A DNA stretch of 64,000 bases from an uncultured Methanosarcinales archaeon (GTDB lineage Archaea > Nanobdellota > Nanobdellia > Woesearchaeales > GW2011-AR9), in the NCBI GenBank assembly GCA_964373955.1, contig CAYJXA010000001.1, positions 108,301 to 172,300 on the forward strand, in the 5' to 3' direction. The translations under genes and the position numbers were made by a program. Shown in pieces: positions 18,607 to 57,928 of this stretch. The notes under the pieces are model-generated. The model was given only the letters and a program-made list of their open reading frames with translations, did not search any database and was not told the DNA's origin. How positions within the stretch are numbered: the first letter of the stretch is position 1; each line of letters starts with the position of its first letter.

Positions 18607-19086
18607 ATGAAAGGGGCCAATTATTTTATCTTCACTATCTTTATTATCATACTTGCTTTAGTCAGTGGTTGTACAAAGCAGGAGATAACACCCACTACAA
18701 CCAGTTCTCCCATTATAATATCAAAAGTTTATACTAATGGATTTACTTTAGAGGAATTGGGATTAACCATAGCTTTAGATGGGGCTGTTGTCTATTATGA
18801 AAAAGCTACTGATGAGTATGGTGTTAATTTTGAACAGAATAGAAAAGAAGGAAAGATAAATAATACCCACTTAATCCAATTGATCCAATTATTTGATAGC
18901 AATTTCTTTGGCTTAGAGGGGTATTATGGTTGCGAAAATGCTCCTACAGACGCTGGTACCAATACTTTTAATTTTAAGGATGAAACAAGAGAAAAATCTG
19001 TGGGGATTTATGGTGGTTGCGAACTTCCACCTGAATTGAAATCAATAGATGAAGAATTGAATAAAATTAAGGACAGGTTAAAATAA
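18607..19086 (+). CDS. Putative lipoprotein (lipobox LVSGC)
   Basis: Signal peptide ending in the L-V-S-G-C lipobox, then a Thr/Ser-rich linker. Confidence 0.5.
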   Translation: MKGANYFIFTIFIIILALVSGCTKQEITPTTTSSPIIISKVYTNGFTLEELGLTIALDGAVVYYEKATDEYGVNFEQNRKEGKINNTHLIQLIQLFDSNFFGLEGYYGCENAPTDAGTNTFNFKDETREKSVGIYGGCELPPELKSIDEELNKIKDRLK

Positions 19087-22877: not shown

Positions 22878-22923
22878 TCAAAAATCAAAAAGTTTAAGTA
22901 CAAATATCTCTTTCTAATCCTTG

Positions 22924-23724
22924 ATGAAAGAAACCATTCTCAAATATGCTCTTAAAAATGCACTAGAGTTCCAGGGCAAAGTAAATCAAAATGTGGTGCT
23001 GGGATTAGTTTTAAGAGATCATCCAGAGCTTAAAAAAGATGTTCCCAAGGTTCGGCAAGAAATTGAAAAAGTCATTCTGGAGATTGGAAAACTAACCCTT
23101 GAAGAAAAAAAAGAGAAATTAGAACACCTTGCCCCGAATTTGCTTCAATCACCACCCGAAGAAACCGCCGAAGGACCATTAAAGCCGCTTCCCAAGGCAG
23201 AGAAAGGAGCGGTAAAAGTAAGAATCGCTCCTTCACCGAGCGGAGCGCTTCATATAGGGCATGCGTATGGAGCTTCTTTAAATTACGAATATAGTAAGAT
23301 GTATCAGGGAAAACTCATCCTGCGGATTGAAGATACCAATCCCGAAAATATCTATGAGCCCGCATATAAATTAATCGAGGAAGATCTGCGATGGTTAACG
23401 GAGAATAACGTGGCGGAAGTGCAGGTGCAATCTTCTCGCTTAGGGATTTATTACGATTATGCAGAAAAATTAATTCGCGACGGAAAAGCATATGTGTGCA
23501 CCTGCAATGCGGAAGTTTGGCGGGAGATGAAAAACCATGGTAAAGCCTGCTCTTGTCGAGAACTCCCCACTAAAGAACAGCACGTACGCTATGCGAAAAT
23601 GTTTAGCGGCTATGCAGAAGGGGAGGCGGTACTACGATTAAAAACAAATATCCAAGACAAGACTCCGGCGAGGCGGGATATAGGCATTATGCGTATTGTT
23701 GATCATGTTAATCCAAAGACATGA
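22924..23724 (+). CDS. gltX: Glutamyl-tRNA synthetase, N-terminal part (HIGH region), terminated by an in-frame TGA
   Basis: VRIAPSPSGALHIGHAYGASLNYEYS...LRIEDTNPEN class I Glu/Gln-RS signature. Ends ..RIVDHVNPKT then TGA. Confidence 0.7.
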   Translation: MKETILKYALKNALEFQGKVNQNVVLGLVLRDHPELKKDVPKVRQEIEKVILEIGKLTLEEKKEKLEHLAPNLLQSPPEETAEGPLKPLPKAEKGAVKVRIAPSPSGALHIGHAYGASLNYEYSKMYQGKLILRIEDTNPENIYEPAYKLIEEDLRWLTENNVAEVQVQSSRLGIYYDYAEKLIRDGKAYVCTCNAEVWREMKNHGKACSCRELPTKEQHVRYAKMFSGYAEGEAVLRLKTNIQDKTPARRDIGIMRIVDHVNPKT

Positions 23725-23748
23725 AAGCAACAGAAACTTTGGCCTTTT

Positions 23749-24624
23749 ATGGTTTTTTCAGTTGCAGTAGATGACCATGAACTGGGGGTTACTCACGTCT
23801 TAAATGGGAAAGATCAAGCAGATAATGCCGTGAAGGAGCGCTTGATTATGGAATTTTTGGGGTGGAAAGCACCGGAGTATAAACATTGGGGCATGATTAA
23901 TTTTGAAGGGTTTATCTTAAGCACTACTCAAACCAGGAAAGCCATCGAGCAAGGAGAATACAAAGGATGGGATGATATTCGCCTACCCTTTCTTCCTGCA
24001 TTGCGTAAAAGGGGTTACCAGCCGGGAGCTTTCCGCCGTTACGCTGTAGAAATCGGACTCAGCCTAAATGACAAGACCGTAAGTAAAGAAGAATTTTGGA
24101 AAAATATTAATGCCTTCAACAAAGAGATTGTAGATCCCCTTGCAAATAGATATTTCTTTATTGACGATCCCGTAGGAATAGTCATCGAAGGTTGCCAGAA
24201 AAAAAGTGTTGAGCTGGAATTGCATCCTGATTTTCCTTCGCGGGGAAAAAGAACTTTTCTTACTGATGAGAAATTTTACATTAGCATGCACGATTTTAAA
24301 AGACTGGGAGAAGGGTATATTCACCGTTTGATGGATTGTTGCAATTTTGAATTGCGGAAAAATAAATTATATTACCTTTCACAGAGTTATGAAGAATACA
24401 AAAATGCAACGAGGAAAGGACATATCATTCATTGGTTGCCTCACGCCGCTAAGAATGTTCAGATGGAAGTGCTTCAAGAGAATGGGTTAACTACCGCCGG
24501 ATTGGGTGAGGAGCGGTTAGCACAGTTGAAGGAAGGAGAAATAGTCCAGTTGGAACGGCGTTATTTTGCGCGGGTAGTGAGGAAAGAGAAAGAGAAGGTT
24601 ATCTTTTGGTATCTGCACAAGTAA
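23749..24624 (+). CDS. gltX: Glutamyl-tRNA synthetase, C-terminal part (same reading frame as 22924..23724)
   Basis: Begins MVFSVAVDDHELGVTHVLNGKDQ. This is the conserved AVDDH..GITHV block that follows the HPRTG-DKY.VWP segment, so the TGA sits exactly where the conserved Gly is expected. Confidence 0.7.
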   Translation: MVFSVAVDDHELGVTHVLNGKDQADNAVKERLIMEFLGWKAPEYKHWGMINFEGFILSTTQTRKAIEQGEYKGWDDIRLPFLPALRKRGYQPGAFRRYAVEIGLSLNDKTVSKEEFWKNINAFNKEIVDPLANRYFFIDDPVGIVIEGCQKKSVELELHPDFPSRGKRTFLTDEKFYISMHDFKRLGEGYIHRLMDCCNFELRKNKLYYLSQSYEEYKNATRKGHIIHWLPHAAKNVQMEVLQENGLTTAGLGEERLAQLKEGEIVQLERRYFARVVRKEKEKVIFWYLHK

Positions 24625-28053: not shown

Positions 28054-31000
28054 CTATTGCTTTTCTTTTCCAAGCTCTTTATTCAATTTCTCTAATTCTC
28101 CCTCAACCTGCAACAATCTTTTTTTCAGAGAAACTGACTCGCTGAGGGAAGACTTTGGACGAGAAATTCTTTCTGCTTCTTTCGCTTTCCGAGCACTATC
28201 AGCAGGCCCCAATCCGGCGATAGTTTCTTCGATTTGTCCTAGTTTTCGATTTAAGAATCTCTTTCGCTCTAGCGAGTCAACTCGGGAGGAAATATTCTCA
28301 TGGGAAGCAGGAGGTAAAAACTCTGGGGGTAGCTGTCCCGCTCTGAGCATACCGAAAGGGGGTTTTGGCGGTACCACTGTACCCGCTTCTGGCTGGTACT
28401 CCAATGATTTAAGATTTTTGTTAATCTGGTCATACTCTTCCTGTAGTTCTACCTGCTGCTTCTTTCCCCAAGCTGAAGGAAGAGTGACGCTAATGCTTGG
28501 TGCGGTCTTCTCAACTTCTTTCTTCCGTTCTCTGGTTTGGATAAAAGCTTTATATTTTCGATATTCTTCCCGCATCAAAATGGAAGTCAGGAAGAGCAAA
28601 GGTAAAAAGATAAGGAGAGCAATTAATCCTACCCAATACGAACTATACTGCAACGCCCTCCCTTTAAACTGTTGGAAGAATGCGCCCCCAACTAGAGCTC
28701 TTGCTTTAGGAGGCACAACTTCAGGGGCAACTACTACCGGAAGAGGTGCTGCCGCCATCACTTCGATCTGACGATGACTGGTAATGTGATAATCTCCATA
28801 CGTTAATTCAATAGTAAGAGTATACTGCCCTGGCTCAAGATCAGAAGGCACAAAGAGAGTTGCATTTTCTATTTCCTCCCTGCCGCTTTGAATAAAAATA
28901 ACATCTTTCCCCTCGGTTTTTATTACCCCCTCTTTCTCCAGGGTGAAATCCAAAACGACGTCTCCGGAAATATTGCTTACCGCTTTCATTAAATATCTCA
29001 CCATGATATTTTCCCCAGCCGGTACCGGAGAGGTAACATCAAGTATCCTTAGGTCAAAGAGTTTTACACAGGAGTGTTGAATGCACACTTCATCAGTACT
29101 ACATTGATCATCAGTGATACATTCATACTCTATGCATTGGTTATTGAAACAATATTGATCTGCTTCACAATCAGCATCGGTGGTGCATTCTACTTTTGGT
29201 TTACTTGCTCCACCTCCGCCGCCTCCACCCCCCGTTACCGCTTCGCTTTCCGTTGTAATCGTTTCACTGGCAGTAAAACTGCTGAAACTGGAAGTATTAA
29301 AAGTGAGTGTTCCGCTGCTGTAACTGATAAGAGTACAACCTGAGCCAAGACAATCAGATCCGCTTATCTCGCTAGCGCTTGATCTAAAGAGTGGATCCTT
29401 AGTCACCCCCGTAACTGAACTAAAAGTAAGCCCTTGAAGAATGATTGTTCCTGTCCGATTTAGGCCTACGAACGCAGAAGTATTAAAAGCGAAAAAATTA
29501 TCTGCAATGATGAGGTTCTTTCCATGCCCCAGCTCAAAGGGAAGACTGATATTAGAGATATTTGTCCATTGCACTGAACCAAAACTATTGTTATATTTCA
29601 TAGTTTGGGCGCAGGCAGATCCGGTAAAGAGAAGAGTAGTATTCTCAAACTGGTTATCCACAAAAGTGTTATTGCAAGAGTTCTCAACTGCTACTCCGGA
29701 AGTTATATTTCTCGTTTCCCGCACTTGTAAAGAGAGAGGATAGGTATATCCGCTACTAACATTAAAACTGGAGTTAAACAGGGCAGTAAGATTATCAATA
29801 TAATTAGAGGAATTGCCATTAGCTATTAAAGCATTAGTGATGTAAAAATCACAAATAGATCCGGGGAGATTAGTGACAACATTACTACAATTAGTTAATC
29901 CGTTAGTATCAGCAGAATCTTTCCGAAGAAAGATGGTCTGGTTAGAAGGAGTTGATCCTGAACTAGAATTAAGAAAACCAAGAATAAGATTAAAATTGTT
30001 ACTGCCATCCGCCATAATGATGGTGGTGTTATCTGCAGAAACATTAACGGAGCCGCCGCCGCCGGTGTACCTTAGGCTGCCATTATAAATCACCCCATTA
30101 TACGTCAAAGGCGAATAGGAGCTTCTAAAAGATATGATAGAAGATATTCGACTGCTATCATTGATAATATTACTCTCTAGATAGGAATGGTTAGAAAGAT
30201 TAAGAAGTACCGCCTGAACCCCCTCTTCATAAATAAGATTCCCCGTGAGATTTGCTTGGCTGCTGTTGAAAATTTGTATAGCCCAAGCAACATTAGAGTG
30301 TAAAACAGTATCAGTAATAATGCTCTTGCTGGTGTTATCAACAGAAATTCCCTGGGTATTCGTTGTAAAGGTGCTATTGCTTACTGTTACATTATTAGTA
30401 TTAGATTCAAAAACCCCCAGAGAAAAATTACTGATGAATATATTTTTAACAGTGACATTATTTACATCACTTATATTTACTCCTAACCCTACGCCATTGC
30501 CGATAATCGCATACCCTGCACCATCAATGATAATATTACTTCTCAGAACGGTAAAACAGGTTCCAGAGGAGGTAATATTTCTCGTTAAAGTAACGCTGGA
30601 GTTAACAGAGCCACACAATGTGTCAAGAGCCGCAAAACTGCTAAAAGAGGTAGTATTAAAGAGAAGTACTTGGCTAACATTATCAAAACTAAAAATAGTG
30701 CAGGAAGTGCCATTACAATTGGTTCCGCTGGTTCTTATTTCATTGGCATTAGTATTAAAAGTCTCCAATCTTCGGATATTGACCACTTCACTAAAACCAA
30801 GCCCCCTAAGAGTAATATTTGCGCTGGAGTTAATTCTTCCAGAGGTGAAAGCGGAAGTATTTACCGCAAGGGTATTATTTCCAATAAAGATATTCCTACC
30901 TACACCGATACCATTAGAATTATTAACATCTAAAGTTAAATCCCGAAGGAAACTACCCGTACCATTATCAATCCATTCGATCCCTCCAAAAGAGTTATTG

Positions 31001-34000
31001 TAAATAAGATAGTTACTGACATTAGCAGCACTATCGTCAGAAATTTCCACAGACCCATTAGAACTGATATTAATGTTGACGAAATAATTATTTCTTATAC
31101 AGTCTCCACTAGTGCAATCTCCCAGCGAAAAAGAGTTAAGGAAGAGAGCGCTAGACGTGCCAAAGTGAGTAATATTTTCATCTGTAAAAGTGTTGTTCTC
31201 AACTACTCCCTGCCCCTGAAGATCATAGGATATGCCCAGGCTGCCCCCCCCGGAATAGAAACGATTAGAAGAAAAATTCATAGTATCCACTCCAGCTATG
31301 AGCACGGTGCTCCCAAAAGCAGCAAAATCTATCAGGGTATTAGAGAAGAAAATTCCCCCGGACACATTACGTAAAATTATTCCCCCCTGGTTACTGTTAT
31401 TAGTTCTATTCACGTAATTTCCAGTGATATTAAAGCTTTTTGATTGAAATGAAATATTAGTATTAATTGCCGTCCCCGAAGAATTTAATTCAAAGAAGTT
31501 GTTAGCGATGGTCGTATGATTAGAGTTTTGTACAAAAAGAAGATCGAGACCTGATCTGGTTCGTGTTACTAAGGTCATATTGGTAATATTAGTACCGTTC
31601 GAATTCTGAACACGAATGTTAGTAGTGAAATTATTCAGCGTGAAATTAAAAAGAGTAATATTGTTAAAACCATTAATAGTTACTCCCGTCCCCGAGCCAT
31701 TACTGTAAACGGAATGGCCAGAACCATTGATGAAGAGGTTAGAATTATTAATAATAAAACAGTCCCCGGTACTACTTAAATCATGATTTAAGGTAAAACT
31801 AGCGGTTACCCTCCCACAGAAATTACTGATGGTAAGATTTCTTGTTTCAGAAACTGCAGAAGTTCCCCCGTCACTACAGTTAATAGACCAGTGGTATTCC
31901 CCATTGAGAAGAGAAGCATTAGCAGTTATACTAGTAGCGGTTGCATTTCGGGTAGAACTATTTCGGCCATAAGGGGCTGTAACCCCCTCGCTATTGTTCA
32001 AATAAAGAGTACAGTCTAAAGTTCCCTGTTGCGCTAGATCATCCGTGACATTAAAAGCAAAACGAGGAGTACTATTAGTATTGTTCAAAGTGTTATTGGG
32101 AGGAGATAAAAGGGAGATAGTAGGAGAACTGTTATCAGCGGTGACGGCAGTGAAACTGCCAAAAGAAGTCATGTTAAAGAGAAGAACTTGAGAGGCATTA
32201 TCAAAACTCAAAATAAGACAGGATGTTCCATTACAATATTCCCCTCCAGTTTTAATTTCATCGATATTCGTGCTAAACGTTTCTAACCGCTGGATGTTAG
32301 CTACGGAATTAAATCCTAAACCGACTAGGGTAAGATTGGCGCTAGAATTAATTCTTCCTGACGTAAAAGCAGACGTGTTAATGGTAACGCTATTATTACG
32401 AATAAAGAAACTCCTCTCTAATCCTATCCCCAAAGCATTACCAACCTGAAGATCTAAATCATCCAGGAAACTATTGTTAGTCCATTGAATTTTACCAAAG
32501 GAGTTGTTATATACAAAAGAATTGAGGTTAGAGTTTCCTGATTGATCATCTATTTCAGAAGTACTAGCGCTGGAGATATTATTATTTCGAAGAGTATTGT
32601 TGGCGGCACTAGCTTGGATAATAATACTTCTAACGGTATCAGTAGTGAAGTTATTCTCCACAAGCGTGTTTCGAGAGGCGTTCTGTCCAAGATTAACCAA
32701 CCCTCTTATAATATTAGACGAGATGTTGTTATCGCTGGAAGATTCACCGGTAGTAGTAATAAAGTTGAAATCAAGAGCAATACCGTCTCCCAAGCTGGTG
32801 ATATTATTAAAGTCTACAATACTAAAACTAGAGTTGACAAAATAAAGACTGCTGCTGTTAGTGGTAACAATTCTATTAAAACTAATGTTGTGGGACAGCG
32901 CATGTTGGGCTAGGATTCCCTCGGCTGCATTTCCAGTCGTATTAACATTATTAAAAATGATGGTGTTGTTTCTTTCACCCGGATTGATTAATATCCCTAC
33001 CGCTCCTAATCCCGAAGTGATAACCGTATTAGATTGCAGACGATTGGAAGAAACAGCAATGTCCAACCCATAAGAATTATTTCCTGAAGTCACCACTTTA
33101 TTTGAATCGATAACCAGGAGGGTTGAGGTGAGTGATCTTATTCCAGGTGACGAGTTAGTAAAAGTAGTGACATTATTTCTGCTGATGTTAGACCGGTTCG
33201 CGCTGGAGAAACTAATTCCTATACTGCCTGTGCTTGCATTGCCAGAAATAATGGTGTTATTCCAGATGGTGTGATTGACGGAGTCTCTTACATCTATTAC
33301 GGTGGAAAAGTTAACCGCGATTAGGTTTCGAACGGTGAGATTATTGAATCCAATTGCTAAAACTGCCGAGCCAGATCCATCTCCCGTTATGGTAAATCCC
33401 GCACCCTCAATCAGGATGTTAGAAGCGTTGACGATAAAGCACGTGCCATCAGTACTGATATTATTGTTAATAGTGACATCATTATTAATAGTGCCGCATT
33501 GAGTTACATTGCTTCCCGAAGTAGCGGAATAATTACTAAATGAAGCAACTGTCGCAGTTAAGATTCCCGTAGTAGAATCATAGGAAGCGATAGTGCAGAG
33601 AGTATTATCGTTATCACACCTCACCCCATCTTTCAATAAGAATGGCTGGGTAGAGTAAGTTAAATTTTTTATGTCTATACGGGCGGATCTATTAAGGTTA
33701 AGCGACTGAGCTGTGTCGAGAATACCCGTGAGATTTTGCTGTAAAAAGATAGTTTGTCCAAGCACTAAACTCATATTGGTAGTGAGATTTTCCCTGGTCC
33801 AGTTTATCATCCCAAAAGAATTATTGTAAATGAGCGTGTTGTTAGTCTCTAAGCCACTCAGATCATAAATACTAAAATTTACTACGGCATTGATGGTATT
33901 ATTCCGGAAAGTATTGTTATAGGTGCTAACATCACTTATCTCTATAGTGGCCAAGGTGGAATTGCCAGTAATATTGTTAGCGATAAAAGAGTTATTACTA

Positions 34001-37000
34001 TTATTGATGAGCAGAAGACCATAACTATTCCAGCCAATGATAGTATTAGATGCGATTATCCCCCCGCGGGTGTTCAACATATACAATCCTGGTGCTATTG
34101 TCCCGGACGTGTTCATATAATTCTGGGAGATGTTAGTCCTATTTGCAAAATTTCTAAGTTCTATTGACGCGCTAGCATTGGCAATAGTACTGAGAGTATT
34201 ATTAAAGAGTACACCGTCAAGAGCGCTGTCCCACCAGATTGCGTCTTTGTTAGAGGAAGTATCCGCCTGTTCAACCATCAGGCAGTTTTTAATGGTGACG
34301 TTATGAAAGCCGGTGTTATTAACTCCCTTTCCCTCTGCACTGGAAGAACCATACCTAATAACATTTCCAGTACAATTAATGAAAATGTTGGATGCGTTTA
34401 TAATGAAACAAGTGTTCTCCGCGCTTACATTCTGGTTGAGAGTAAAATTTCTATTGACATACCCACAACTAGCAATGTCCGCAGCAAAACTGCTAAACGA
34501 AGTAGTATTGAAACGCAAGATGCCGGTGTTTACATTATAATTAAAGACAAGGCAAGAATTGCTGCTGATACAATCAGTTCCTGCTCTGATCACGGTAGTA
34601 CTATTCTCATCATACTCTTCCAAACGACGGATACTTTCAACCCTGCTGACATTAAGGGCATAGAGGGTAAGATTCGCGCTGGAGTTTATTCTCCCCGATA
34701 CAAATGCGGAAGTATTAACGGTGATAATATTCTGCCCAATGAAAATATTTCTACCTAATCCAATCCCCAGACTATTATTAGCATTCAAGGTTAAATCCTG
34801 CTGAAAGCTCGTATTCGTCCATCGGATCTCCCCAAAGGTGTTGTTATAAATGAGATAATTTACCAAACCTGCTGATGACGAATCAGAAATCTCAGTGTTA
34901 TTTGACGTAAAGTTATTGTTTAAGAAGGTATTATTTTCAGAAGTGCTTAAAATTGACAACACCGTCGATTTACTCGAATTAAGGGAATTGTAATCGAAGA
35001 GGTTATAGCTGCCATTAACTAGGTTAATAGCAAGGTTAGGGCCAGAGCCAGTCGTATTGATGATGTTAGAACTAACATTATTATAGTTAGAAGTCCTTAA
35101 ACCAAGACCAGTAGAACCATTCCCGATAGAAAACAGAGTATTAGAAAGTAGGATATTGCCCTCTGAAAAGTTGAGCAGGATTCCATGAGAATTGGTAGCA
35201 TTAATAGTGAGGGTGCTGGTGTTAATCACAGAACTATTTGTGTCTTGAAAAACGATACCTGGTCTTTCTCCATCCCCCGCTGCGGTTTCGATAGTGACAT
35301 TAGAGATGGTAATATTAAACCCAGCAGTGATATGAATCCCTTCTGAAAAATTGTTGAGAGCAATATTCCTAATAGTAATATTCCTAAAGCCTGAACTGTT
35401 GATTCCAAACCCGCTTCCGGTTCCCGTGAGTACATACCCGGCACCATTAATCAGGATATTGGAAGCATTAATAGTTAAACAAGTTCCCGTAAAGGTTGTA
35501 TTTTGAGTTAAAGTGAGATTCCCATTGACCGTTCCACAAATGGAAGACCCGTTTCCCAAGGCAGCAAAACTGCTAAAAGAAGTAGTATTAAACCGCAAAG
35601 TACTATCTGCTCCCATACTAAACACGGTACAACTACTCCCCAGGCAATCCACCCCATTGTTAGAAATATTGGTAGAATTCGTATCATAAGCAGGAACTTT
35701 CAGAATAGAATTTATCGCCGTAAAGTTCAAACCAAAGACGGTTATGTTAGCTGTTCCGTTAATCCAGCTGCTCCCGAACGTAGAAGTATTTAACGCAATA
35801 ACATTGCTCCCTATAAAAAGATTCCTTGCTAAACCAATACCCTCACTGCTTGCAACAGAAAGTGTTAGGTTCCGAGTGAAGCTCCTTGTTCCATTATCAA
35901 TCCATTTTATCTCACCAAAAGAGTTATTATAGATGAGATAATTACTGACATTGGTAGCACTATTATCCTGTATCTCCTGGGACCCATTTGTGCTTATATT
36001 CACATTAATGAAATAATTATTTCTCACGCAATCCCCACCGGAACATTCTCCTTGCGAGAAAGAATTAAGAAAAACGGCGCTTTGAGTTCCAAAACTAGTA
36101 ATGTTGTCATTGGTGAAAGTGTTATTTTCCACAACGCCCATCCCTTGAAATCCAAAGGCGGTTGACAAGCTCCCTCCCCCAACGTATACTTTGTTAGAAG
36201 AAAAATTACTGTTAGTAACTCCCATTAAAAGAATCGCCGTTCCACCACTTCCAAAATCGAAGAGGGTATTGGAATTGAAATTCAAGCCAGTGATGTTTCC
36301 CAGATTGAATCCCCCCTGATTAGAATTATTTGTTCTATTAACGTAATTATTAGTAATGTTTAAATCGGTATTTAGAAAAAGAATGTTAGTATTAAGGGTC
36401 ATGGAAGAGGTATTCTGCTCAAAATAATTATTAACAATAGTGGTATGGTTTACATTTTGTAAGCTTATCAAAGCTTGCGTATTAGTTATGCGAGATAGAA
36501 AAGTAACGTTAGTGATATTAGTACCATTAGAATCCTGGACATAAATTTGTTGCGAGAAATTGTAAATAGTGAGATTAAAGATGGTAATATTATTGAAACC
36601 AGTGATATTAATTCCCACGCCAGAACCATTGCTAATAAGGGAATAACCAGAACCATTGAGAAATATGTCTGAACCATTAATGATAAAGCAGTGCGTATCC
36701 GCAACAATATTCTGAGTAAGAGTATAAACTCCGCGAGCAGTAAGATTAGCACAAGTTGATTGCAGGACCGTAGGGATGATGTATCCTGTGGGTGAAATGA
36801 TATTTGAAGGGTTATTCTCTGTTACTATTTCAACTGAAGCCCCAGTAATACTGTTTCCTGTTCCAAGGAAGGAATCCAGTGTAGTCACAATTATTTCTTT
36901 TTCGGAAAAAAAATGTCCCGGAATAGTATCAAAAACCAGAGTGGTAGTTGGCTCACTGACCAATAAGACAAAAATAAAAGAAATCATTCCTGCAAGCAAG

Positions 37001-37062
37001 AAATATTCTTTAGTCTCGTTCAGTGAATTCCTTTTCCAGTTTTTTCTCTCTCCTGATTTCAT
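28054..37062 (-). CDS. Giant (3002 aa) surface protein: N-terminal signal/anchor, multiple N-glycosylation-rich parallel beta-helix repeat modules, Cys-rich knot, C-terminal TM helix and cytoplasmic coiled-coil tail
   Basis: Uninterrupted 9 kb ORF. Asn/Thr/Ser-rich with hundreds of N-x-S/T sequons. The recurring TSFSSFAA motif marks about 6 modules. GGGGGGGG linker, CTTDADCEADQYCFNNQCIEYEC knot, then a TM (WVGLIALLIFLPLLFLTSILM) and a K/E-rich tail. Confidence 0.8.
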   Translation of the reverse strand: MKSGERKNWKRNSLNETKEYFLLAGMISFIFVLLVSEPTTTLVFDTIPGHFFSEKEIIVTTLDSFLGTGNSITGASVEIVTENNPSNIISPTGYIIPTVLQSTCANLTARGVYTLTQNIVADTHCFIINGSDIFLNGSGYSLISNGSGVGINITGFNNITIFNLTIYNFSQQIYVQDSNGTNITNVTFLSRITNTQALISLQNVNHTTIVNNYFEQNTSSMTLNTNILFLNTDLNITNNYVNRTNNSNQGGFNLGNITGLNFNSNTLFDFGSGGTAILLMGVTNSNFSSNKVYVGGGSLSTAFGFQGMGVVENNTFTNDNITSFGTQSAVFLNSFSQGECSGGDCVRNNYFINVNISTNGSQEIQDNSATNVSNYLIYNNSFGEIKWIDNGTRSFTRNLTLSVASSEGIGLARNLFIGSNVIALNTSTFGSSWINGTANITVFGLNFTAINSILKVPAYDTNSTNISNNGVDCLGSSCTVFSMGADSTLRFNTTSFSSFAALGNGSSICGTVNGNLTLTQNTTFTGTCLTINASNILINGAGYVLTGTGSGFGINSSGFRNITIRNIALNNFSEGIHITAGFNITISNVTIETAAGDGERPGIVFQDTNSSVINTSTLTINATNSHGILLNFSEGNILLSNTLFSIGNGSTGLGLRTSNYNNVSSNIINTTGSGPNLAINLVNGSYNLFDYNSLNSSKSTVLSILSTSENNTFLNNNFTSNNTEISDSSSAGLVNYLIYNNTFGEIRWTNTSFQQDLTLNANNSLGIGLGRNIFIGQNIITVNTSAFVSGRINSSANLTLYALNVSRVESIRRLEEYDENSTTVIRAGTDCISSNSCLVFNYNVNTGILRFNTTSFSSFAADIASCGYVNRNFTLNQNVSAENTCFIINASNIFINCTGNVIRYGSSSAEGKGVNNTGFHNVTIKNCLMVEQADTSSNKDAIWWDSALDGVLFNNTLSTIANASASIELRNFANRTNISQNYMNTSGTIAPGLYMLNTRGGIIASNTIIGWNSYGLLLINNSNNSFIANNITGNSTLATIEISDVSTYNNTFRNNTINAVVNFSIYDLSGLETNNTLIYNNSFGMINWTRENLTTNMSLVLGQTIFLQQNLTGILDTAQSLNLNRSARIDIKNLTYSTQPFLLKDGVRCDNDNTLCTIASYDSTTGILTATVASFSNYSATSGSNVTQCGTINNDVTINNNISTDGTCFIVNASNILIEGAGFTITGDGSGSAVLAIGFNNLTVRNLIAVNFSTVIDVRDSVNHTIWNNTIISGNASTGSIGISFSSANRSNISRNNVTTFTNSSPGIRSLTSTLLVIDSNKVVTSGNNSYGLDIAVSSNRLQSNTVITSGLGAVGILINPGERNNTIIFNNVNTTGNAAEGILAQHALSHNISFNRIVTTNSSSLYFVNSSFSIVDFNNITSLGDGIALDFNFITTTGESSSDNNISSNIIRGLVNLGQNASRNTLVENNFTTDTVRSIIIQASAANNTLRNNNISSASTSEIDDQSGNSNLNSFVYNNSFGKIQWTNNSFLDDLDLQVGNALGIGLERSFFIRNNSVTINTSAFTSGRINSSANLTLVGLGFNSVANIQRLETFSTNIDEIKTGGEYCNGTSCLILSFDNASQVLLFNMTSFGSFTAVTADNSSPTISLLSPPNNTLNNTNSTPRFAFNVTDDLAQQGTLDCTLYLNNSEGVTAPYGRNSSTRNATATSITANASLLNGEYHWSINCSDGGTSAVSETRNLTISNFCGRVTASFTLNHDLSSTGDCFIINNSNLFINGSGHSVYSNGSGTGVTINGFNNITLFNFTLNNFTTNIRVQNSNGTNITNMTLVTRTRSGLDLLFVQNSNHTTIANNFFELNSSGTAINTNISFQSKSFNITGNYVNRTNNSNQGGIILRNVSGGIFFSNTLIDFAAFGSTVLIAGVDTMNFSSNRFYSGGGSLGISYDLQGQGVVENNTFTDENITHFGTSSALFLNSFSLGDCTSGDCIRNNYFVNINISSNGSVEISDDSAANVSNYLIYNNSFGGIEWIDNGTGSFLRDLTLDVNNSNGIGVGRNIFIGNNTLAVNTSAFTSGRINSSANITLRGLGFSEVVNIRRLETFNTNANEIRTSGTNCNGTSCTIFSFDNVSQVLLFNTTSFSSFAALDTLCGSVNSSVTLTRNITSSGTCFTVLRSNIIIDGAGYAIIGNGVGLGVNISDVNNVTVKNIFISNFSLGVFESNTNNVTVSNSTFTTNTQGISVDNTSKSIITDTVLHSNVAWAIQIFNSSQANLTGNLIYEEGVQAVLLNLSNHSYLESNIINDSSRISSIISFRSSYSPLTYNGVIYNGSLRYTGGGGSVNVSADNTTIIMADGSNNFNLILGFLNSSSGSTPSNQTIFLRKDSADTNGLTNCSNVVTNLPGSICDFYITNALIANGNSSNYIDNLTALFNSSFNVSSGYTYPLSLQVRETRNITSGVAVENSCNNTFVDNQFENTTLLFTGSACAQTMKYNNSFGSVQWTNISNISLPFELGHGKNLIIADNFFAFNTSAFVGLNRTGTIILQGLTFSSVTGVTKDPLFRSSASEISGSDCLGSGCTLISYSSGTLTFNTSSFSSFTASETITTESEAVTGGGGGGGGASKPKVECTTDADCEADQYCFNNQCIEYECITDDQCSTDEVCIQHSCVKLFDLRILDVTSPVPAGENIMVRYLMKAVSNISGDVVLDFTLEKEGVIKTEGKDVIFIQSGREEIENATLFVPSDLEPGQYTLTIELTYGDYHITSHRQIEVMAAAPLPVVVAPEVVPPKARALVGGAFFQQFKGRALQYSSYWVGLIALLIFLPLLFLTSILMREEYRKYKAFIQTRERKKEVEKTAPSISVTLPSAWGKKQQVELQEEYDQINKNLKSLEYQPEAGTVVPPKPPFGMLRAGQLPPEFLPPASHENISSRVDSLERKRFLNRKLGQIEETIAGLGPADSARKAKEAERISRPKSSLSESVSLKKRLLQVEGELEKLNKELGKEKQ
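30250..36780 (-). repeat. Internal large segmental repeats within the giant gene (for example about 0.9 kb at 35.9-36.8 kb, about 70% identical at protein level to 30.25-31.2 kb)
   Basis: Protein segments FIINGSDIFLNGSGYSLISNGSGVGINITGFNNITIFNLT... and FIINNSNLFINGSGHSVYSNGSGTGVTINGFNNITLFNFT... align over about 300 aa. Confidence 0.5.
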
Positions 37063-37877: not shown

Positions 37878-37931
37878 AATGGTGTTAAAATTAAGATAAA
37901 TATATAAATTGTTCGAAACTAAAGACTATAA

Positions 37932-38717
37932 ATGTGGATATATGATTTAAACCCCGTATTGGTACAGCTCGGCCCATTGCAAATACGATGGTACGGGTTG
38001 GTGTACGTTTTAGGATTTTTTGCAGCAATATGGTGGCTTCATCAAGCACAAAAAAGGGGGAAACTTTCTCTTGCCCCAGATGAAATATGGGATTTGATAT
38101 TTTACCTTATGGTGGGAGTAATTATTGGCTCCCGCCTTTTTATGATATTTTGGAATCCAGAAATATATCTCTACCATCCAATAAACCTCTTTAAAATCTG
38201 GGAAGGAGGAATGAGTTTCCATGGCGGTTTTGTAGGAATAATTACCGCTTGCTGGATTTATTGTAAAAGAAAGCGATTAGATTTTTGGCGGATAGCTGAT
38301 ATCATTTCTATTCCGGCGATGCTGGCCCTGGCGTTAGGAAGAATCGCCAATTTTATTAATGGGGAATTAGTCGGCAGGGTTTGGAATGGACGTTGGTGCG
38401 TAGTATTCCCAGAGTATGGCCAGGAATGCAGACACCCCAACATGATTTATTCTGCTCTACAGCGGTTAACGGTATTTAGTTGGCTCTGGTTCCTCAGCAT
38501 AAGAGATCGGTTTGCTCCGGGATTTATTTTCTGGAACTTCGTCTTTTGGGAAGGAGTAGGCCGATTTTTGATGGATTTTTTCCGGGAAGATAGCCTTTAC
38601 GTTGGGCTTAGCTTGGGGCAATGGTTTAGCCTCGCGATGATTATAGTAGCATTGGGGGTATTCTGGAAGAGATACAGAGAAGACTGGAAAGGGATGTTTT
38701 CTCCACAAAGTTCTTAA
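37932..38717 (+). CDS. lgt: Prolipoprotein diacylglyceryl transferase (bacterial-type Lgt)
   Basis: LGPLQIRWYGLVY, IWEGGMSFHGGFVG and GRIANFINGELVGR match Lgt signatures (HWYGLMY, VWDGGMSFHGG, GRLGNFINGELWGR). Confidence 0.8.
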   Translation: MWIYDLNPVLVQLGPLQIRWYGLVYVLGFFAAIWWLHQAQKRGKLSLAPDEIWDLIFYLMVGVIIGSRLFMIFWNPEIYLYHPINLFKIWEGGMSFHGGFVGIITACWIYCKRKRLDFWRIADIISIPAMLALALGRIANFINGELVGRVWNGRWCVVFPEYGQECRHPNMIYSALQRLTVFSWLWFLSIRDRFAPGFIFWNFVFWEGVGRFLMDFFREDSLYVGLSLGQWFSLAMIIVALGVFWKRYREDWKGMFSPQSS

Positions 38718-38754
38718 AGGGCCCCCTGAAATAAGCTTACTGGAGGGATATTAT

Positions 38755-39168
38755 ATGAAAACACCACTAATTATAGCAGTGGTGATAGGTGTTCTTGTGT
38801 TAATTGTAGGTTGTACGCAACAAGCTACGATTACAGAAGTAAAGTCAACCGCACCGCCAGCATTAGAAGATGATTCTACAGCAGTGCCAGTTCTATCGAG
38901 ACAAAGTTACCAGGTAGTAATCGAAGACGGCAAACTCATGCCTGTAGATGTGGAAATTAATGCTGGTGATACCGTAGAATGGGTCAACAAAGATGAAGTT
39001 CGTTATACTTTATTGTTCAGCGGATCTGAAGAGAGATTATCTGTTGGGGGAACCTTTGAGCAACAGTTTACAGAACCGGGCATAGCACGATACATTGTAG
39101 CAGTCGTAGAAGAAGACCGGGACGATAATCAAGAACGAGAACTGCAGGGTACAGTAATAGTAAATTAA
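38755..39168 (+). CDS. Putative lipoprotein (lipobox LIVGC), beta-sandwich-like
   Basis: MKTPLIIAVVIGVLVLIVGCTQQ signal plus lipobox. 38 nt downstream of lgt. Confidence 0.55.
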   Translation: MKTPLIIAVVIGVLVLIVGCTQQATITEVKSTAPPALEDDSTAVPVLSRQSYQVVIEDGKLMPVDVEINAGDTVEWVNKDEVRYTLLFSGSEERLSVGGTFEQQFTEPGIARYIVAVVEEDRDDNQERELQGTVIVN

Positions 39169-39206
39169 GATAACCTTTTTATTTTCTTCTTTCTTTCTCT
39201 TTCGCT

Positions 39207-43190: not shown

Positions 43191-43739
43191 ATGGTAGACA
43201 GTTTCCCTCCCGGAGCTGAAGGAGAAGCAGAAAGATTAGAGCGAGAAGCATGCTGTGGTGATATTTCCAAACTTTTAGAACCTTACAAACTTCCCTGCTG
43301 CATACTTTTTTTAGGCATGAGTCTGGCGGGTGAAGTACTACGATCCTGCGAAGAGAGGAAAAGATCTCAAACAACATTTTCTTTACAGCAAGTGCTGGTT
43401 GACCAGATTGAATGGTACCAGCAAGAAATATCCCCTGAACTTCATCAAAGACTGGGCGTAGAGCGTATCTGCCGATATGAACCCAGCTGTTCAGCCTACG
43501 CAAAAGAAGCTATCATCAAAAATGGTGCTCTTCTGGGATCTTTACAGGCGGGAAGAAGATTACTTCGCTGTAACCCTTTAAGTCTAGGGGGGTATGACCC
43601 AATAACTTTAAACGAAACCAGGGAACACTTTAAAATGATGATAAAAGTTTACCAAAATGAAGGATGGTACGCAGCCCTACATTACGATTATGAACGAACT
43701 AAAACCTCTTGGTCAGAAAAATTATCGTTGAGATCATGA
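43191..43739 (+). CDS. YidD-like (membrane protein insertion efficiency factor / PF01809) domain protein with N-terminal extension
   Basis: CRYEPSCSAYAKEAIIKNGALLGSLQAGRRLLRCNPLSLGGYDP matches the YidD signature C.F.PSCS.YA..A....G...G......R..RC.P...GG.DP. Confidence 0.6.
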   Translation: MVDSFPPGAEGEAERLEREACCGDISKLLEPYKLPCCILFLGMSLAGEVLRSCEERKRSQTTFSLQQVLVDQIEWYQQEISPELHQRLGVERICRYEPSCSAYAKEAIIKNGALLGSLQAGRRLLRCNPLSLGGYDPITLNETREHFKMMIKVYQNEGWYAALHYDYERTKTSWSEKLSLRS

Positions 43740-54695: not shown

Positions 54696-56252
54696 TTAAA
54701 ATGTGCCCAAGAGGCTGAATGCAAATTCTGCACGATTGTTTTGGACATCGATTTGCGCCGTTCCTCGTACTCCAACTGCATAACCATCTCTATTTCCATC
54801 ACGGAAGAGATCAACTGCAACCCCTGGAGCAACACCGTAACTTCTGGTGCTACCTGATTCTGCGCAAGCATCATTTGAGTCAGTGCCACAGCTAACTGCA
54901 TGTGGTTCACCAACAGCTCTACCATCCGCATCAAACAATTGCGACGTTCTCGTTCGAGCAACGGCAACTTCTCTATCGCTTGCGGTAAGGTCAACAATGC
55001 CACTAACTCCTGGAACCCATTTTTGACTAGGTTTCCAAGGTGTTCCTACTCGTAACTGAGCATGACCACGATAATGGTCAGTTGTTCCTCTCGTTCCAAT
55101 CATAGAAGAATCTTCTCGGTAATCTCCTTGAGGTTGGGATTGTGCTACGGGATCCAGATCGGAGGTGTCTGTAACTGCTCCGCCATGTCCAACTCCGCCG
55201 CCTAAGCCAACGGTGACGGAATCCCCTCGGTAGGTAACTGCAGCAACGACTGCGCCAGCAGCTGCTCCTCGATATCCTGCTTGCACTCCTGCTTCCAGCC
55301 AGATGCGTCGAGTATTATCATGATGTCCGAAGACGTTACGAGTAATCCGTTGTTCGAGTTCATGATAAGCTGCATCGTAAGCACCAGTTGCTTGGGTGCA
55401 TTGTCTTGCGACTGCATCCGCATGTTCTCTTCGCGCAGGTAATCCTCGTTGCCGTCTTTCAAGTTCTCGACGAAGTTCAATAGCTCTTAAAGCTCTACCC
55501 TCATCAGTTAAACCTTGTTCACTGGCAAGAGCATCAATTCTCGCAGAGAGAGAAGCTGCTTCCTGTGCAACGGCACTTTCTTCTCGCGCAACATCACGCT
55601 GAGCTTGATATGCTCCAGCACAAGTATCTTTCATTTTTTGTGCAATTCCAGCTAATCGTGCAAATTCAGGGGTTAATGCTTCCCTAAAAATTCTATGCAT
55701 ATATTGTGTGGTTGGATCTTTTTCCATTCTGTCCACTCTTACTACCAGATCTTCATAGCCTTCTAATCTCTCCACAAGCCCAGTAAGACTTGCTAAAAGG
55801 CCTTCTTGAGCAGCAGAAACACTTTGTTGATTTCGTTCAAGTGCATCTTGTCGTCCTGCTAAATCATCCTGGCGTTCACTTAATCCTACAACACCTTGAC
55901 CTAAAGCATCAACCGCACTTTGAAGACCGCTATAATCCTCGCCAGTTCTTTCTTGCAAAGCATCAATTCTTTCCTGTAAGCGTTGTAATTCGGCTTCATA
56001 ATCCGCATGCGTATGAGGATGTTCATGCGCTCGCACTGCTGGAGCAACTGCTCTTTTTCGTGCAGGTCTCTTTGCAGGTGCTGCTGGAGCTGCAGGACTT
56101 GGGGCTGCAGCAGCTGGTGAACCGCCAGGAACGAAAGTCCCGCCTTGCGTACCATCATCTGCAAACGCAGTTGCGGAAAGTAATGAAATTCCAACTGCTG
56201 CTGCAGGAGCTAAAACATATTCTCCAATCATTCTGGTTAATGAATTTGACAT
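54696..56252 (-). CDS. Secreted Ala/Arg-rich protein: signal peptide, long coiled coil, Gly/beta-rich C-terminal domain ending in Phe (bacterial OMP-like terminus)
   Basis: LAPAAAVGISLLSATAFADD signal. Heptad-rich middle. C-terminus ..NNRAEFAFSLLGTF. Confidence 0.5.
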   Translation of the reverse strand: MSNSLTRMIGEYVLAPAAAVGISLLSATAFADDGTQGGTFVPGGSPAAAAPSPAAPAAPAKRPARKRAVAPAVRAHEHPHTHADYEAELQRLQERIDALQERTGEDYSGLQSAVDALGQGVVGLSERQDDLAGRQDALERNQQSVSAAQEGLLASLTGLVERLEGYEDLVVRVDRMEKDPTTQYMHRIFREALTPEFARLAGIAQKMKDTCAGAYQAQRDVAREESAVAQEAASLSARIDALASEQGLTDEGRALRAIELRRELERRQRGLPARREHADAVARQCTQATGAYDAAYHELEQRITRNVFGHHDNTRRIWLEAGVQAGYRGAAAGAVVAAVTYRGDSVTVGLGGGVGHGGAVTDTSDLDPVAQSQPQGDYREDSSMIGTRGTTDHYRGHAQLRVGTPWKPSQKWVPGVSGIVDLTASDREVAVARTRTSQLFDADGRAVGEPHAVSCGTDSNDACAESGSTRSYGVAPGVAVDLFRDGNRDGYAVGVRGTAQIDVQNNRAEFAFSLLGTF

Positions 56253-56269: not shown

Positions 56270-57835
56270 TTATAGCTTATCTAATCCCAAACCAAATCTT
56301 ATGTCTTTGTCTCTGCCAACTTGAACATGAGCAGCACAGGCGTCCACTCCTTTTGCAATAATATCTGCCCTGAGAGGACCGTACAATGAATGCGTTTGAG
56401 CTCCAGGAACTGAACCAAGAGTAAGATCAACTAACTGGCCAATACCTAATTCACATGCCCCTCGTGCATCATTTCCTTTGTAACTACGAATAGAAACGGC
56501 AACAGGAACTCTTGCATACGCACCAACAATCTCTTGCCAAGAGTGATTAGCAACATACTGTCGAGCATCCCCTAACATAGTTGCTAAAAAATCAGTAGGT
56601 GCAGGACATACTGGAGCAGGTGGACAAACTACAGCAGGAGCTGGAACCACGGGTGGAACCGCCGGAGCTGTTGGAGCCACCGGTGCAGCTGGTACAACGG
56701 GTGCTGCAGGAGCAGCAACATATGGTGCAGCGGGACTAGCTGCAGCTGGTACTCCACCATCCATTCTTGGAGAGGGAGTTTGTGCAATATAAGGAGTTCC
56801 CGGAGTTGCTGGTGCAATAGGAGCAACGGGCGGAACTGGTGCAGCAGGTGCAGGAACTACTGGAGCAACTGGTGCTACAGGAGCCGCTGGTTGAGCTGGA
56901 GCTCCACCATCTAAACGAGGAGGAGGTGAAGATAATGCGCCAGCAGACGCTGCTGAAGGTGCTCCGCCGTCAGCTCTTGTAGCTGCTACGGGAGGAGCAG
57001 GACTTGCACTCGCGTCACGTCGTTGAGATTGAGCAGATGCAGAGCCATCGAGAGGAGCAGAATACCCTGCTCCGTCGCTTCCTGCATCTAAATTAGGATG
57101 AACGCCAGCGTCTGCATGAGAAACTGGTGCTGGACTAGGTCCACAGCCCCAGCCTTGATATGAACTGAAACCAATTGCTGCTGCTAACACTAACGTGCCT
57201 AAGCCAGCATACGTTGCAATTCTTTCCCCGCGAGTTCGAGGTCGAGGAACTAATGCTCGCAATTGTGCTCCCCATCCTAAAGTCTGAAGATTTTGTTGAC
57301 CTTGCCCTTGTTGTTGAACAGTCATTTGTCCTAAAGCAGCGAAGACAGCTACTCCATCACTTTGTGGAGCTAAACCAAAATAACTTGCGGTATCAGAACC
57401 ATGAAGGGTAGGTTGAAGAGCTTGATGCTGCGCAAAAACGTCCGCGATTGTTTTAGTGCCAACCCCAATCTGCGCCCATTCTTCCGCTCTAGCAGCAGGC
57501 AATTGTGCCACCACTCTGGGCAAGCCAACCAGTGCATGATCTGCTGCGTCAAAACTTTCATACGCAACAAAAGTTCGCAAAATTCGAATAAGATCGTCCC
57601 CTACTCTGGTTCTGTCCGCCGCCGGAACTACTTGCGCTCCCGGGGCGGCGCCTTCGCCAGTGATGTAAGTAACTGCAGATAATAAACGAGCATCGTCAAA
57701 ATTGTATGCAAGAGGCTGGGCAGGTGGTTGTGCTTGGTAATGATTACGAACTTCATCTTCAAAATCTGAAAGTCGTTGTAATAAATCCCGCGCTTCTTGT
57801 GTTTGAAAAGTATGCTGTACTTGTCGTGCTGCCAT
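56270..57835 (-). CDS. Membrane protein with cytoplasmic N-domain, one TM, long Pro/Ala-rich linker and C-terminal extracytoplasmic domain
   Basis: Start chosen at the ATG with a gaggt RBS (MAARQVQ...); the ORF track begins at an upstream GTG. PAxPV repeats over about 150 aa. Confidence 0.5.
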   Translation of the reverse strand: MAARQVQHTFQTQEARDLLQRLSDFEDEVRNHYQAQPPAQPLAYNFDDARLLSAVTYITGEGAAPGAQVVPAADRTRVGDDLIRILRTFVAYESFDAADHALVGLPRVVAQLPAARAEEWAQIGVGTKTIADVFAQHQALQPTLHGSDTASYFGLAPQSDGVAVFAALGQMTVQQQGQGQQNLQTLGWGAQLRALVPRPRTRGERIATYAGLGTLVLAAAIGFSSYQGWGCGPSPAPVSHADAGVHPNLDAGSDGAGYSAPLDGSASAQSQRRDASASPAPPVAATRADGGAPSAASAGALSSPPPRLDGGAPAQPAAPVAPVAPVVPAPAAPVPPVAPIAPATPGTPYIAQTPSPRMDGGVPAAASPAAPYVAAPAAPVVPAAPVAPTAPAVPPVVPAPAVVCPPAPVCPAPTDFLATMLGDARQYVANHSWQEIVGAYARVPVAVSIRSYKGNDARGACELGIGQLVDLTLGSVPGAQTHSLYGPLRADIIAKGVDACAAHVQVGRDKDIRFGLGLDKL

Positions 57836-57928
57836 GATGGTATACCTCGTACGAATTGTTAATACCACTGCAAAGTAGACACTTCTATATAAATCTTTTG
57901 CACTAAATTGCTAGCTGGGAGTGATAAC

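Follow-up and report, generated by a model that had tools for sequence, protein, structure and literature searches.

A bacterial-type prolipoprotein diacylglyceryl transferase homolog and its neighbouring lipobox cupredoxin in Woesearchaeota-type archaea

Bacterial Lgt, the diacylglyceryl transferase acting on prolipoproteins (EC 2.5.1.145; PF01790, TIGR00544), is represented structurally by the Escherichia coli enzyme (5AZB/5AZC) and is described as having no archaeal counterpart. Hong et al., the discoverers of the archaeal enzymes AliA and AliB (Nat Commun 2025; PMC12462473), report Lgt as absent from archaea and hold that lipids of the archaeal kind called for distinct enzymes, AliA/AliB (arCOG02177/arCOG02178; HVO_2859/HVO_2611 in Haloferax volcanii); a phylogenomic survey of Lgt that drew on RefSeq as searched in February 2021 (mBio 2026; PMC13251419) likewise reports it absent. 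Both papers take this absence as a reason why another enzyme must have been needed for the lipids of archaea. AliA carries two conserved arginines in a putative pocket, and its derivation from Lgt has been suggested (PMC12462473). Before 2025, halocyanin of Natronomonas pharaonis was the only archaeal lipoprotein whose lipid had been chemically analysed (PMC12462473). Here we describe a 261-residue Lgt homolog encoded at positions 37932..38717 (+) of a 64,000-nucleotide stretch of DNA, referred to below as the window (assembly GCA_964373955.1, contig CAYJXA010000001.1, positions 108,301 to 172,300), from a Woesearchaeota-type archaeon (DPANN; GTDB Nanoarchaeota). It is probable, in our judgement, that lgt encodes a functional Lgt-type enzyme transferring lipid to lipobox cysteines, which was acquired anciently, has been inherited vertically in Woesearchaeota and acts on a co-transcribed cupredoxin lipoprotein among other substrates.

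The open reading frame (ORF) encodes a bona fide member of the Lgt family. Its product matches PF01790 over profile positions 1–239 of 240 (E=1.8e-68; 230.9 bits against a cutoff of 24.9) and the TIGR00544 equivalog with 176.3 bits (cutoff 118.9), and a phmmer search of PDB sequences returns E. coli Lgt (5azb/5azc) as the sole match (E=4e-38). The motifs RWYGL (residues 19–23, including WYGL), GGMSFHGG (92–99) and GRIANFINGEL (136–146, of the form GRxxNFINGEL) are all in place, so that the strong match claimed in an earlier, sequence-only reading of the window is borne out. AliA is presumed to do the same job, placing a thioether lipid anchor on the lipobox cysteine, but resembles PF01790 only marginally (HHpred probability 29%), whereas the window protein is a strong member of that family. 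An AlphaFold2 model built with 42 homologs (predicted local distance difference test, pLDDT, 85.3; predicted template modelling score, pTM, 0.85) has seven transmembrane helices and an N-terminal beta-hairpin arm, the seven-helix fold with arm and head of 5AZB. In a Foldseek comparison with the PDB, 5AZB is the only significant match (E=1.8e-13, probability 1.00, template modelling scores 0.76/0.70), and the next match has an E-value of 1. Compared with the bacterial enzyme, the window protein is about 30 residues shorter, both the head and the L6-7 loop being reduced. The short loop and an alanine at E. coli position 145 were considered as archaeal signatures and dropped, as both are common in unlabelled and bacterial-type representatives.

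The residues tied to catalysis in E. coli are retained. Window residues were mapped to E. coli numbering through HMMER and MAFFT alignments that included 39 Lgts of the core clade, the group to which the window protein belongs, and nine other archaeal Lgts. The correspondences are Y21 to Y26, H97-G-G to the proposed peptide-binding site H103-G-G, D123 to D129, G136-R137 to G142-R143, N140 and N143 to N146 and N149, E145 to E151, G148 to G154, H168 to H196, R211 to R239 and R218 to R246, and all of these are invariant or nearly so among the aligned archaeal sequences. Within the signature G136-R-I-A-N-F-I-N-G-E-L-V-G148, which preserves the bacterial pattern G-R-x-x-N-F-I-N-G-E-L-x-G, the R, N, N, E and G do not vary among the 48 archaeal Lgts, and neither do the equivalents of R143 and R239, the catalytic arginine pair. 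The histidine of HGG is found in 39/39 core and 8/9 other sequences; the Y26 equivalent is present in all 36 ungapped core sequences (three are gapped at this column) and in 9/9 of the others. In the E. coli study by Mao et al. (PMC4728403), Y26, H103, G142, R143 and E151 are essential by plate assay, R239, E243 and R246 are described as intolerant of mutation, and Y26 and R143 contact ester oxygens of phosphatidylglycerol. The conserved set includes residues that this study found essential or put forward as the catalytic centre. By this comparison the window enzyme is apparently catalytically intact. A separate alignment of 42 Woesearchaeal Lgt sequences reveals three further invariant residues, C111, C156 and C166; the C156/C166 pair, a difference from bacterial Lgt, maps to the head segment WNGRWCVVFPEYGQECRHP on the extracytoplasmic side and could be joined by a disulfide specific to the clade.

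Likely lipobox-bearing substrates are encoded close to lgt, a feature shared with the bacterial enzyme. The next gene, 38755..39168 (+), lies in the same orientation behind a spacer of 37 nucleotides (38718–38754; the sequence-only reading had counted 38) and encodes a 137-residue protein. Its N-terminus, MKTPLIIAVVIGVLVLIVGC, has a canonical n-region, h-region and lipobox and passes the PROSITE-type lipobox rule at Cys20, which upholds the LIVGC lipobox noted earlier. A signal peptide (residues 1–19) and the lipobox L-I-V-G-C20 are followed by a disordered linker rich in Thr, Ser, Pro and Ala (about 21–49) and a cupredoxin-fold domain (50–137). The family of this protein is small, with 31 members; the lipobox cysteine is invariant in 21/21 aligned members while the linker varies, and 16 of the 19 syntenic homologs that were evaluated keep the lipobox. 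In the AlphaFold2 model the N-terminal 49 residues are disordered and the beta-sandwich domain exceeds a pLDDT of 90; Foldseek matches it to plastocyanin and amicyanin (E 3e-7 to 1e-5, probability 1.00, target template modelling scores 0.6–0.7), and there is a weak match to PF13473. The type-1 copper ligands H…C-x2-H-x2-M are preserved in distant family members (P0299–P0303), which match PF00127/PF13473. In the subfamily of the window protein the first copper histidine is replaced by tyrosine and the Cys-His-Met loop by an acidic insertion, and the mature protein contains no histidine and, besides the lipobox cysteine, no cysteine. Sequence and model together indicate a predicted lipid-anchored cupredoxin devoid of a copper site, which, having lost the ligands, cannot be a blue copper electron carrier. 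Like halocyanin it is a small archaeal cupredoxin with an N-terminal lipobox cysteine, and its distant relatives retain the full set of type-1 ligands; unlike halocyanin, the window protein and its close relatives lack them.

The two genes probably form a bicistronic unit. A TATA-like, AT-rich element, ATAAATATATAAAT (37896..37909, +), lies in the 54-nucleotide divergent intergenic region, approximately 23–36 nucleotides upstream of the lgt ATG; as a putative archaeal promoter it would give rise to a leaderless or short-leader lgt transcript. The 37-nucleotide spacer contains no TATA-like element, which suggests that lgt and the lipobox gene are co-transcribed. A Shine-Dalgarno-like GGAGG motif (38742..38746, +) is found 8 nucleotides before the ATG of the lipobox gene, and a T-rich tract, CTTTTTATTTTCTTCTTTCTTTCTCTTTC (39175..39203, +), directly follows its stop codon and could serve as an archaeal oligo-T terminator. 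The downstream protein is a likely substrate of Lgt. A second candidate substrate is the 159-residue product of 18607..19086 (+), MKGANYFIFTIFIIILALVSGC22…, in which the LVSGC lipobox reported by the sequence-only reading is real (the rule is passed at Cys22) and whose match to PF20033 (DUF6438), at 29.7 bits, narrowly misses the cutoff of 30. These are the only two genuine genes, out of about 56, that pass the lipobox rule when it is applied to all ORFs of the window; two more matches were rejected as shadow ORFs inside larger genes.

Lgt turns out to be widespread in this archaeal lineage. A search of 5.8 billion proteins yields the identical protein, on an NCBI contig of 298 kb, and more than 100 Lgt clusters at 60–80% identity to the window protein, and among the matches listed in this range every cluster with a taxon name is a 'Candidatus Woesearchaeota archaeon' or a 'Nanoarchaeota archaeon'. 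In GTDB contigs representing one genome per species, 37 Lgt loci are 55–73% identical to the window protein, all of them in archaeal metagenome-assembled genomes (MAGs); below these, identity drops to approximately 41% (Gammaproteobacteria). The genomic neighbourhood was compared by blastp of the neighbouring proteins of the window against the 37 archaeal loci. ABCE1 (about 70% identity) is encoded within a few kb of lgt in some 30 of them, about 21 have a gene for a homolog of the downstream lipoprotein immediately behind lgt, seven have endonuclease dU nearby, and several contain the giant surface protein or the small ORF from upstream of lgt. The lgt region is a syntenic block that is inherited vertically. 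The earlier statement that Lgt homologs are essentially bacterial agrees with the literature, but the databases hold a large and diversified Woesearchaeota/Nanoarchaeota Lgt family.

More distant relatives extend this family. A HMMER scan of 1.84 billion cluster representatives finds a graded series of Lgts (66, 55, 53, 49, 46, 44 … % identity), and divergent representatives at 35–49% identity, most of which lack taxon names, were placed by gene context. Archaeal neighbours surround P0130 (41% identity; L24e, S28e, L7Ae, eIF2γ, S6e), P0128 (44%; TIM, S19e, L31e, L15e), P0168 (S13e/S15P, RpoL, A24 prepilin peptidase) and P0142 (Rrp4, SBDS, proteasome α, Rpp14, SecDF), while P0124 (49%) is named Nanoarchaeota and P0145 (39%, on a 910 kb contig) Woesearchaeota. 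P0147 is a bacterial representative with DnaB nearby, and the context of P0150 is ambiguous. Among the best 120 matches to a profile built from the six divergent Lgts confirmed as archaeal, those with names are Woesearchaeota (11), Nanoarchaeota (4) and 'Bacteroidota' (1). Overall, Lgt is a diversified, lineage-wide gene of the Woesearchaeota/Nanoarchaeota DPANN group with at least two conserved types of synteny.

Several of the taxonomic labels call for comment. The 'Bacteroidota bacterium' contig L090 (GCA_042584385.1 JBHOSX010000023.1) encodes Orc1/Cdc6 and an archaeal-type IleRS, and a 'Nitrosarchaeum sp.' contig, L091 (GCA_012030845.1 JAAUVG010000056.1), carries IleRS as well. Both labels look like binning errors, since these contigs hold archaeal genes and share a DPANN-type IleRS…Lgt–TIM arrangement, the Lgt–TIM part of which is also found in L082. 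Third-party-annotation (TPA) contigs titled 'uncultured Methanosarcinales archaeon' (L001, L002 …) share the Woesearchaeal synteny with the window; the label looks wrong, and the titles of this one assembly series appear to be placeholders. In two loci with a different synteny, lipobox genes stand beside or near a divergent archaeal lgt (L081, 8790..9155 (-), …FTILSGC; L082, 6778..7581 (-), …IFLAGC), which suggests that the pairing of enzyme and substrate recurs.

How lgt entered the lineage is less firmly resolved. The core clade receives 71% support in a neighbour-joining tree of 214 sequences and 246 columns with 100 bootstraps. A single ancient transfer from bacteria to archaea is the most economical reading, because the archaeal distribution is restricted and approximately 40% identity to bacterial sequences is high for a vertical split at the level of the domains. 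From the bacterial source, lgt would most likely have entered early in the Woesearchaeota-type lineage and would then have been passed on vertically while diversifying. By analogy with the E. coli enzyme, the protein would be a cytoplasmic-membrane enzyme whose active site is turned outwards; it would bind an anionic glycerophospholipid in a pocket formed around R137 and R211 and move the glyceryl-dialkyl or glyceryl-diacyl moiety to the thiol of the lipobox cysteine of exported preproteins, thereby creating a thioether anchor. The copper-less cupredoxin, probably co-transcribed with lgt, would be one substrate and the 18607 protein another.

A number of observations weigh against this account. 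All 39 core-clade sequences have glutamate in place of Y235 (E207 in the window protein) and aspartate in place of E243 (D215), and 36 of the 39 have serine or alanine in place of E202 (S174); in E. coli the three residues belong to the hydrogen-bond network around the glycerol C3. E202 and Y235 are described as conserved, and they are not, unlike E243, among the residues shown to be essential in the consulted text of the E. coli study (PMC4728403). Group G1, the nearest to the core clade, also lacks Y235 and E202, and the other archaeal groups mostly keep both. From these alignments, the predicted lipid-backbone pocket of the core clade is remodelled (Y235E, E202S/A). The window protein furthermore has alanine at position 145, where the G145A substitution inactivates E. 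coli Lgt (PMC4728403), yet alanine is frequent there in many other Lgts. The backbone of the neighbour-joining tree has bootstrap values of about 0 and leaves the deep phylogeny of Lgt unresolved. Kimura distances among the archaeal groups (approximately 1.1–1.2) are only marginally smaller than those to bacteria (approximately 1.2–1.4), which weakly favours a single archaeal radiation; with the backbone and distances as they are, a single ancient transfer is not demonstrated. In a lipobox census, the archaeal loci have 25 lipobox carriers among 80 signal-peptide-like ORFs and the bacterial loci 22 among 77, but the census is biased towards lgt neighbourhoods, and 16 of the 25 archaeal matches are the linked gene itself. 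In the same crude census, the residue after a [LVI][AST..][GAS] tripeptide is cysteine in 11% of cases versus a background of 1.4%.

The remaining enzymes of the bacterial pathway also failed to appear. Neither Lsp (PF01252) nor Lnt/CN_hydrolase was matched in Pfam scans of window ORFs of at least 110 residues, and the 473 kb of archaeal DNA surrounding lgt genes, searched in six-frame translation by phmmer with E. coli LspA (E≤10) and by three motif regular expressions, yielded no credible Lsp. It is important to point out that the 473 kb amount to roughly 1–6% of each genome (genomes of about 1 Mb), so that the negative says little either way, and that the search had no positive control, the bacterial loci examined likewise having yielded none. 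What follows is that Lsp is not linked to lgt. A single motif match in a 614-residue ORF of L017 was judged to be due to chance. Lnt is dispensable in many bacteria. The bacterial-type lipoprotein pathway proposed by the sequence-only reading is thus supported as regards Lgt and a substrate, while Lsp and Lnt were seen neither in the window nor in the 473 kb of related archaeal DNA. That reading also held that the organism diacylglycerylates its lipoproteins like a bacterium. Lgt-type lipidation of cysteine is very likely in this archaeon, because an intact-looking Lgt in an archaeal genome is followed by a lipobox protein with an invariant cysteine; archaeol is at least as plausible as diacylglycerol as the group transferred, given the geranylgeranyl-reductase-family gene of the window and the two changed pocket residues.

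The identity of the lipid donor can be argued along two lines. The chances are not far short of even that archaetidylglycerol is used and archaeol becomes attached, so that Lgt would do in Woesearchaeota what AliA does in haloarchaea. The archaeal lipoproteins studied so far (Hfx. volcanii; halocyanin) bear thioether-linked archaeol, the window encodes a protein of the geranylgeranyl reductase family (TIGR02032, 161.6 bits versus a cutoff of 158.8), and the replacement of Y235 and E202, which contact the glycerol C3, is what one might expect for a glycerol of opposite stereochemistry with ether bonds. This proposal is purely inferential, it sits uneasily with the bacterial-type Y235 and E202 of other archaeal Lgt groups, and many DPANN archaea are thought not to make their own lipids. 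Alternatively, the donor could be bacterial-type phosphatidylglycerol, made by the cell itself or obtained from a bacterial partner, resulting in true S-diacylglyceryl lipoproteins, a possibility that we regard as rather doubtful. The invariance of Y26 and R143, the residues in contact with phosphatidylglycerol's ester oxygens in E. coli Lgt, is in line with such a donor, as is the YidD equivalog of the window, an otherwise bacterial protein, and DPANN archaea may have bacterial hosts. Fab genes, the methylerythritol phosphate (MEP) pathway and a cyclopropane-fatty-acyl-phospholipid synthase have been reported in Woesearchaeota/Nanoarchaeota MAGs (PMC10936187), and GpsA/GlpK in Woesearchaeota and PlsC/PlsY in some DPANN archaea (PMC6431249). 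Pointing the other way, the geranylgeranyl-reductase-family protein fits isoprenoid lipids, the altered pocket of the core clade speaks against a donor identical to that of E. coli, and the window contains no phospholipid-synthesis genes of either bacterial or archaeal type.

It is unlikely that the protein is a neofunctionalised enzyme of the Lgt fold with another acceptor or donor, for instance a non-lipobox target or lipid head groups to be remodelled, while AliA lipidates the lipobox proteins. The remodelled glycerol-backbone pocket (Y235E, E202S/A, E243D) and the lack of Lsp in the DNA searched are compatible with such a change of function, AliA (arCOG02177) is reported in DPANN archaea 'with some gaps', and a mycobacterial Lgt paralog is thought to be inactive or weak (PMC12462473). 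Yet the catalysis-tied residues and the proposed peptide-binding HGG are all invariant, lgt shows tight linkage to a gene in which the lipobox cysteine is the one N-terminal feature that never varies, and in other archaeal Lgt groups, which keep Y235/E202, lipobox genes again lie close by (L081, L082).

That a single genome picked up lgt recently by horizontal transfer, as an isolated event of no significance for the lineage as a whole, is very improbable. A bacterial origin as such is plausible, the nearest named bacterial homologs (Gammaproteobacteria) being about 41% identical. Orthologs of 55–80% identity are, however, found at a conserved position in at least 37 species-level genomes, no bacterial sequence comes nearer than approximately 45%, and the composition of lgt is fully ameliorated. 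Its GC content is 0.425 (0.428±0.025 for all window genes) and its GC content at third codon positions (GC3) 0.435 (0.386±0.054); compared with window genes of 600–1100 nucleotides, its tetranucleotide correlation is 0.73 (0.75±0.09) and its codon-usage correlation 0.78 (0.82±0.055). Contamination of the Lgt segment by bacterial DNA, a chimeric assembly or a mis-binned contig can be dismissed almost entirely, even though papers report Lgt as absent from archaea (PMC12462473, PMC13251419) and some MAG labels within the family are wrong ('Bacteroidota', 'Nitrosarchaeum'): the composition break that the sequence-only reading associated with a bacterial contaminant is absent, the GC profile of the window being flat and codon usage unbroken at lgt, the gene has archaeal neighbours on both sides within a single contig, even the mislabelled contigs hold genes of archaeal type (Orc1/Cdc6, archaeal-type IleRS), and the order lgt–(lipoprotein)–(endonuclease dU)–ABCE1 is found again in about 30 independent MAGs that come from different studies and assemblers, a conserved archaeal synteny that refutes this explanation.

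The remainder of the window fits an archaeal host. The archaeal core machinery noted earlier is confirmed by ABCE1/RLI (NF009945, 799 bits), endonuclease dU and a tRNA-splicing endonuclease, and the geranylgeranyl-reductase-family protein likewise marks the setting as archaeal; rRNA and tRNA genes are lacking in the window. A 182-residue protein encoded at 43191..43739 (+), 4.5 kb from lgt, has a YidD domain (PF01809, 76 bits; TIGR00278 equivalog, 60.6 bits versus a cutoff of 40). YidD, an efficiency factor for the insertion of membrane proteins that is usually taken to be bacterial, is, besides lgt, the second bacterial-type membrane-biogenesis gene of this archaeal window. Just upstream of the lgt region, a giant ORF of 3002 residues (28054..37062, -) combines beta-helix-like repeats and extremely frequent N-x-S/T sequons with a Cys-rich module and a C-terminal transmembrane segment; its product is presumably a heavily N-glycosylated surface protein, and homologs occupy the same position in L001, L033, L035 and L036. 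A single in-frame TGA at 23722..23724 (…NPKT*KQQKLWPFMVFSVAVDDHELGV…) divides the gene for a class-I Glu/Gln-tRNA synthetase (22921..24624, +) into two ORFs of the same frame. TGA serves as an ordinary stop codon in 10 of 54 window genes, and the one in the synthetase is therefore an isolated sequencing error, a pseudogene mutation or a site of local recoding or readthrough. Two adjacent genes of approximately 520 codons (54696..56252 and 56270..57868, both -) stand out by composition, with a GC content of 0.48–0.50, a GC3 of only 0.23 and tetranucleotide correlations of 0.29–0.44 versus about 0.75 in other genes; they have no match in the Pfam scan and may encode low-complexity surface proteins or represent foreign DNA. 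A large ORF of 1351 residues (6890..10945, -) has no Pfam match at E≤1e-4.

Full-text literature searches found no paper noting an archaeal Lgt, while archaeal Lgt proteins are already annotated automatically as Lgt in NCBI and JGI records. The finding is accordingly not a new protein family but the unrecognised, lineage-wide occurrence of a known enzyme in an unexpected domain of life, with clade-specific variation of its active site. A large, old and diversified Lgt family in Woesearchaeota/Nanoarchaeota corrects the stated phyletic distribution of Lgt, offers a candidate explanation for predicted DPANN lipoproteins where AliA has gaps, and bears on whether AliA evolved from an Lgt once present in archaea. 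It also poses a testable question, namely whether an Lgt-fold enzyme uses archaeal ether lipids or whether these archaea possess bacterial-type phospholipids, as other reported lipid genes of Woesearchaeota hint. More speculatively, Woesearchaeota and related Nanoarchaeota-type DPANN archaea might cross the 'lipid divide' in protein lipidation, either by having bacterial-type phosphatidylglycerol in their membranes, of their own making or scavenged from bacterial partners, and producing true S-diacylglyceryl lipoproteins, or by having adapted the Lgt fold (Y235E/E202S) to archaetidylglycerol with its opposite stereochemistry. If true, either would count as the first lipoprotein system of Archaea that depends on Lgt; DPANN genomes rich in lipoproteins but without AliA would be explained, and the proposed evolutionary link from Lgt to AliA would have a living reference point.

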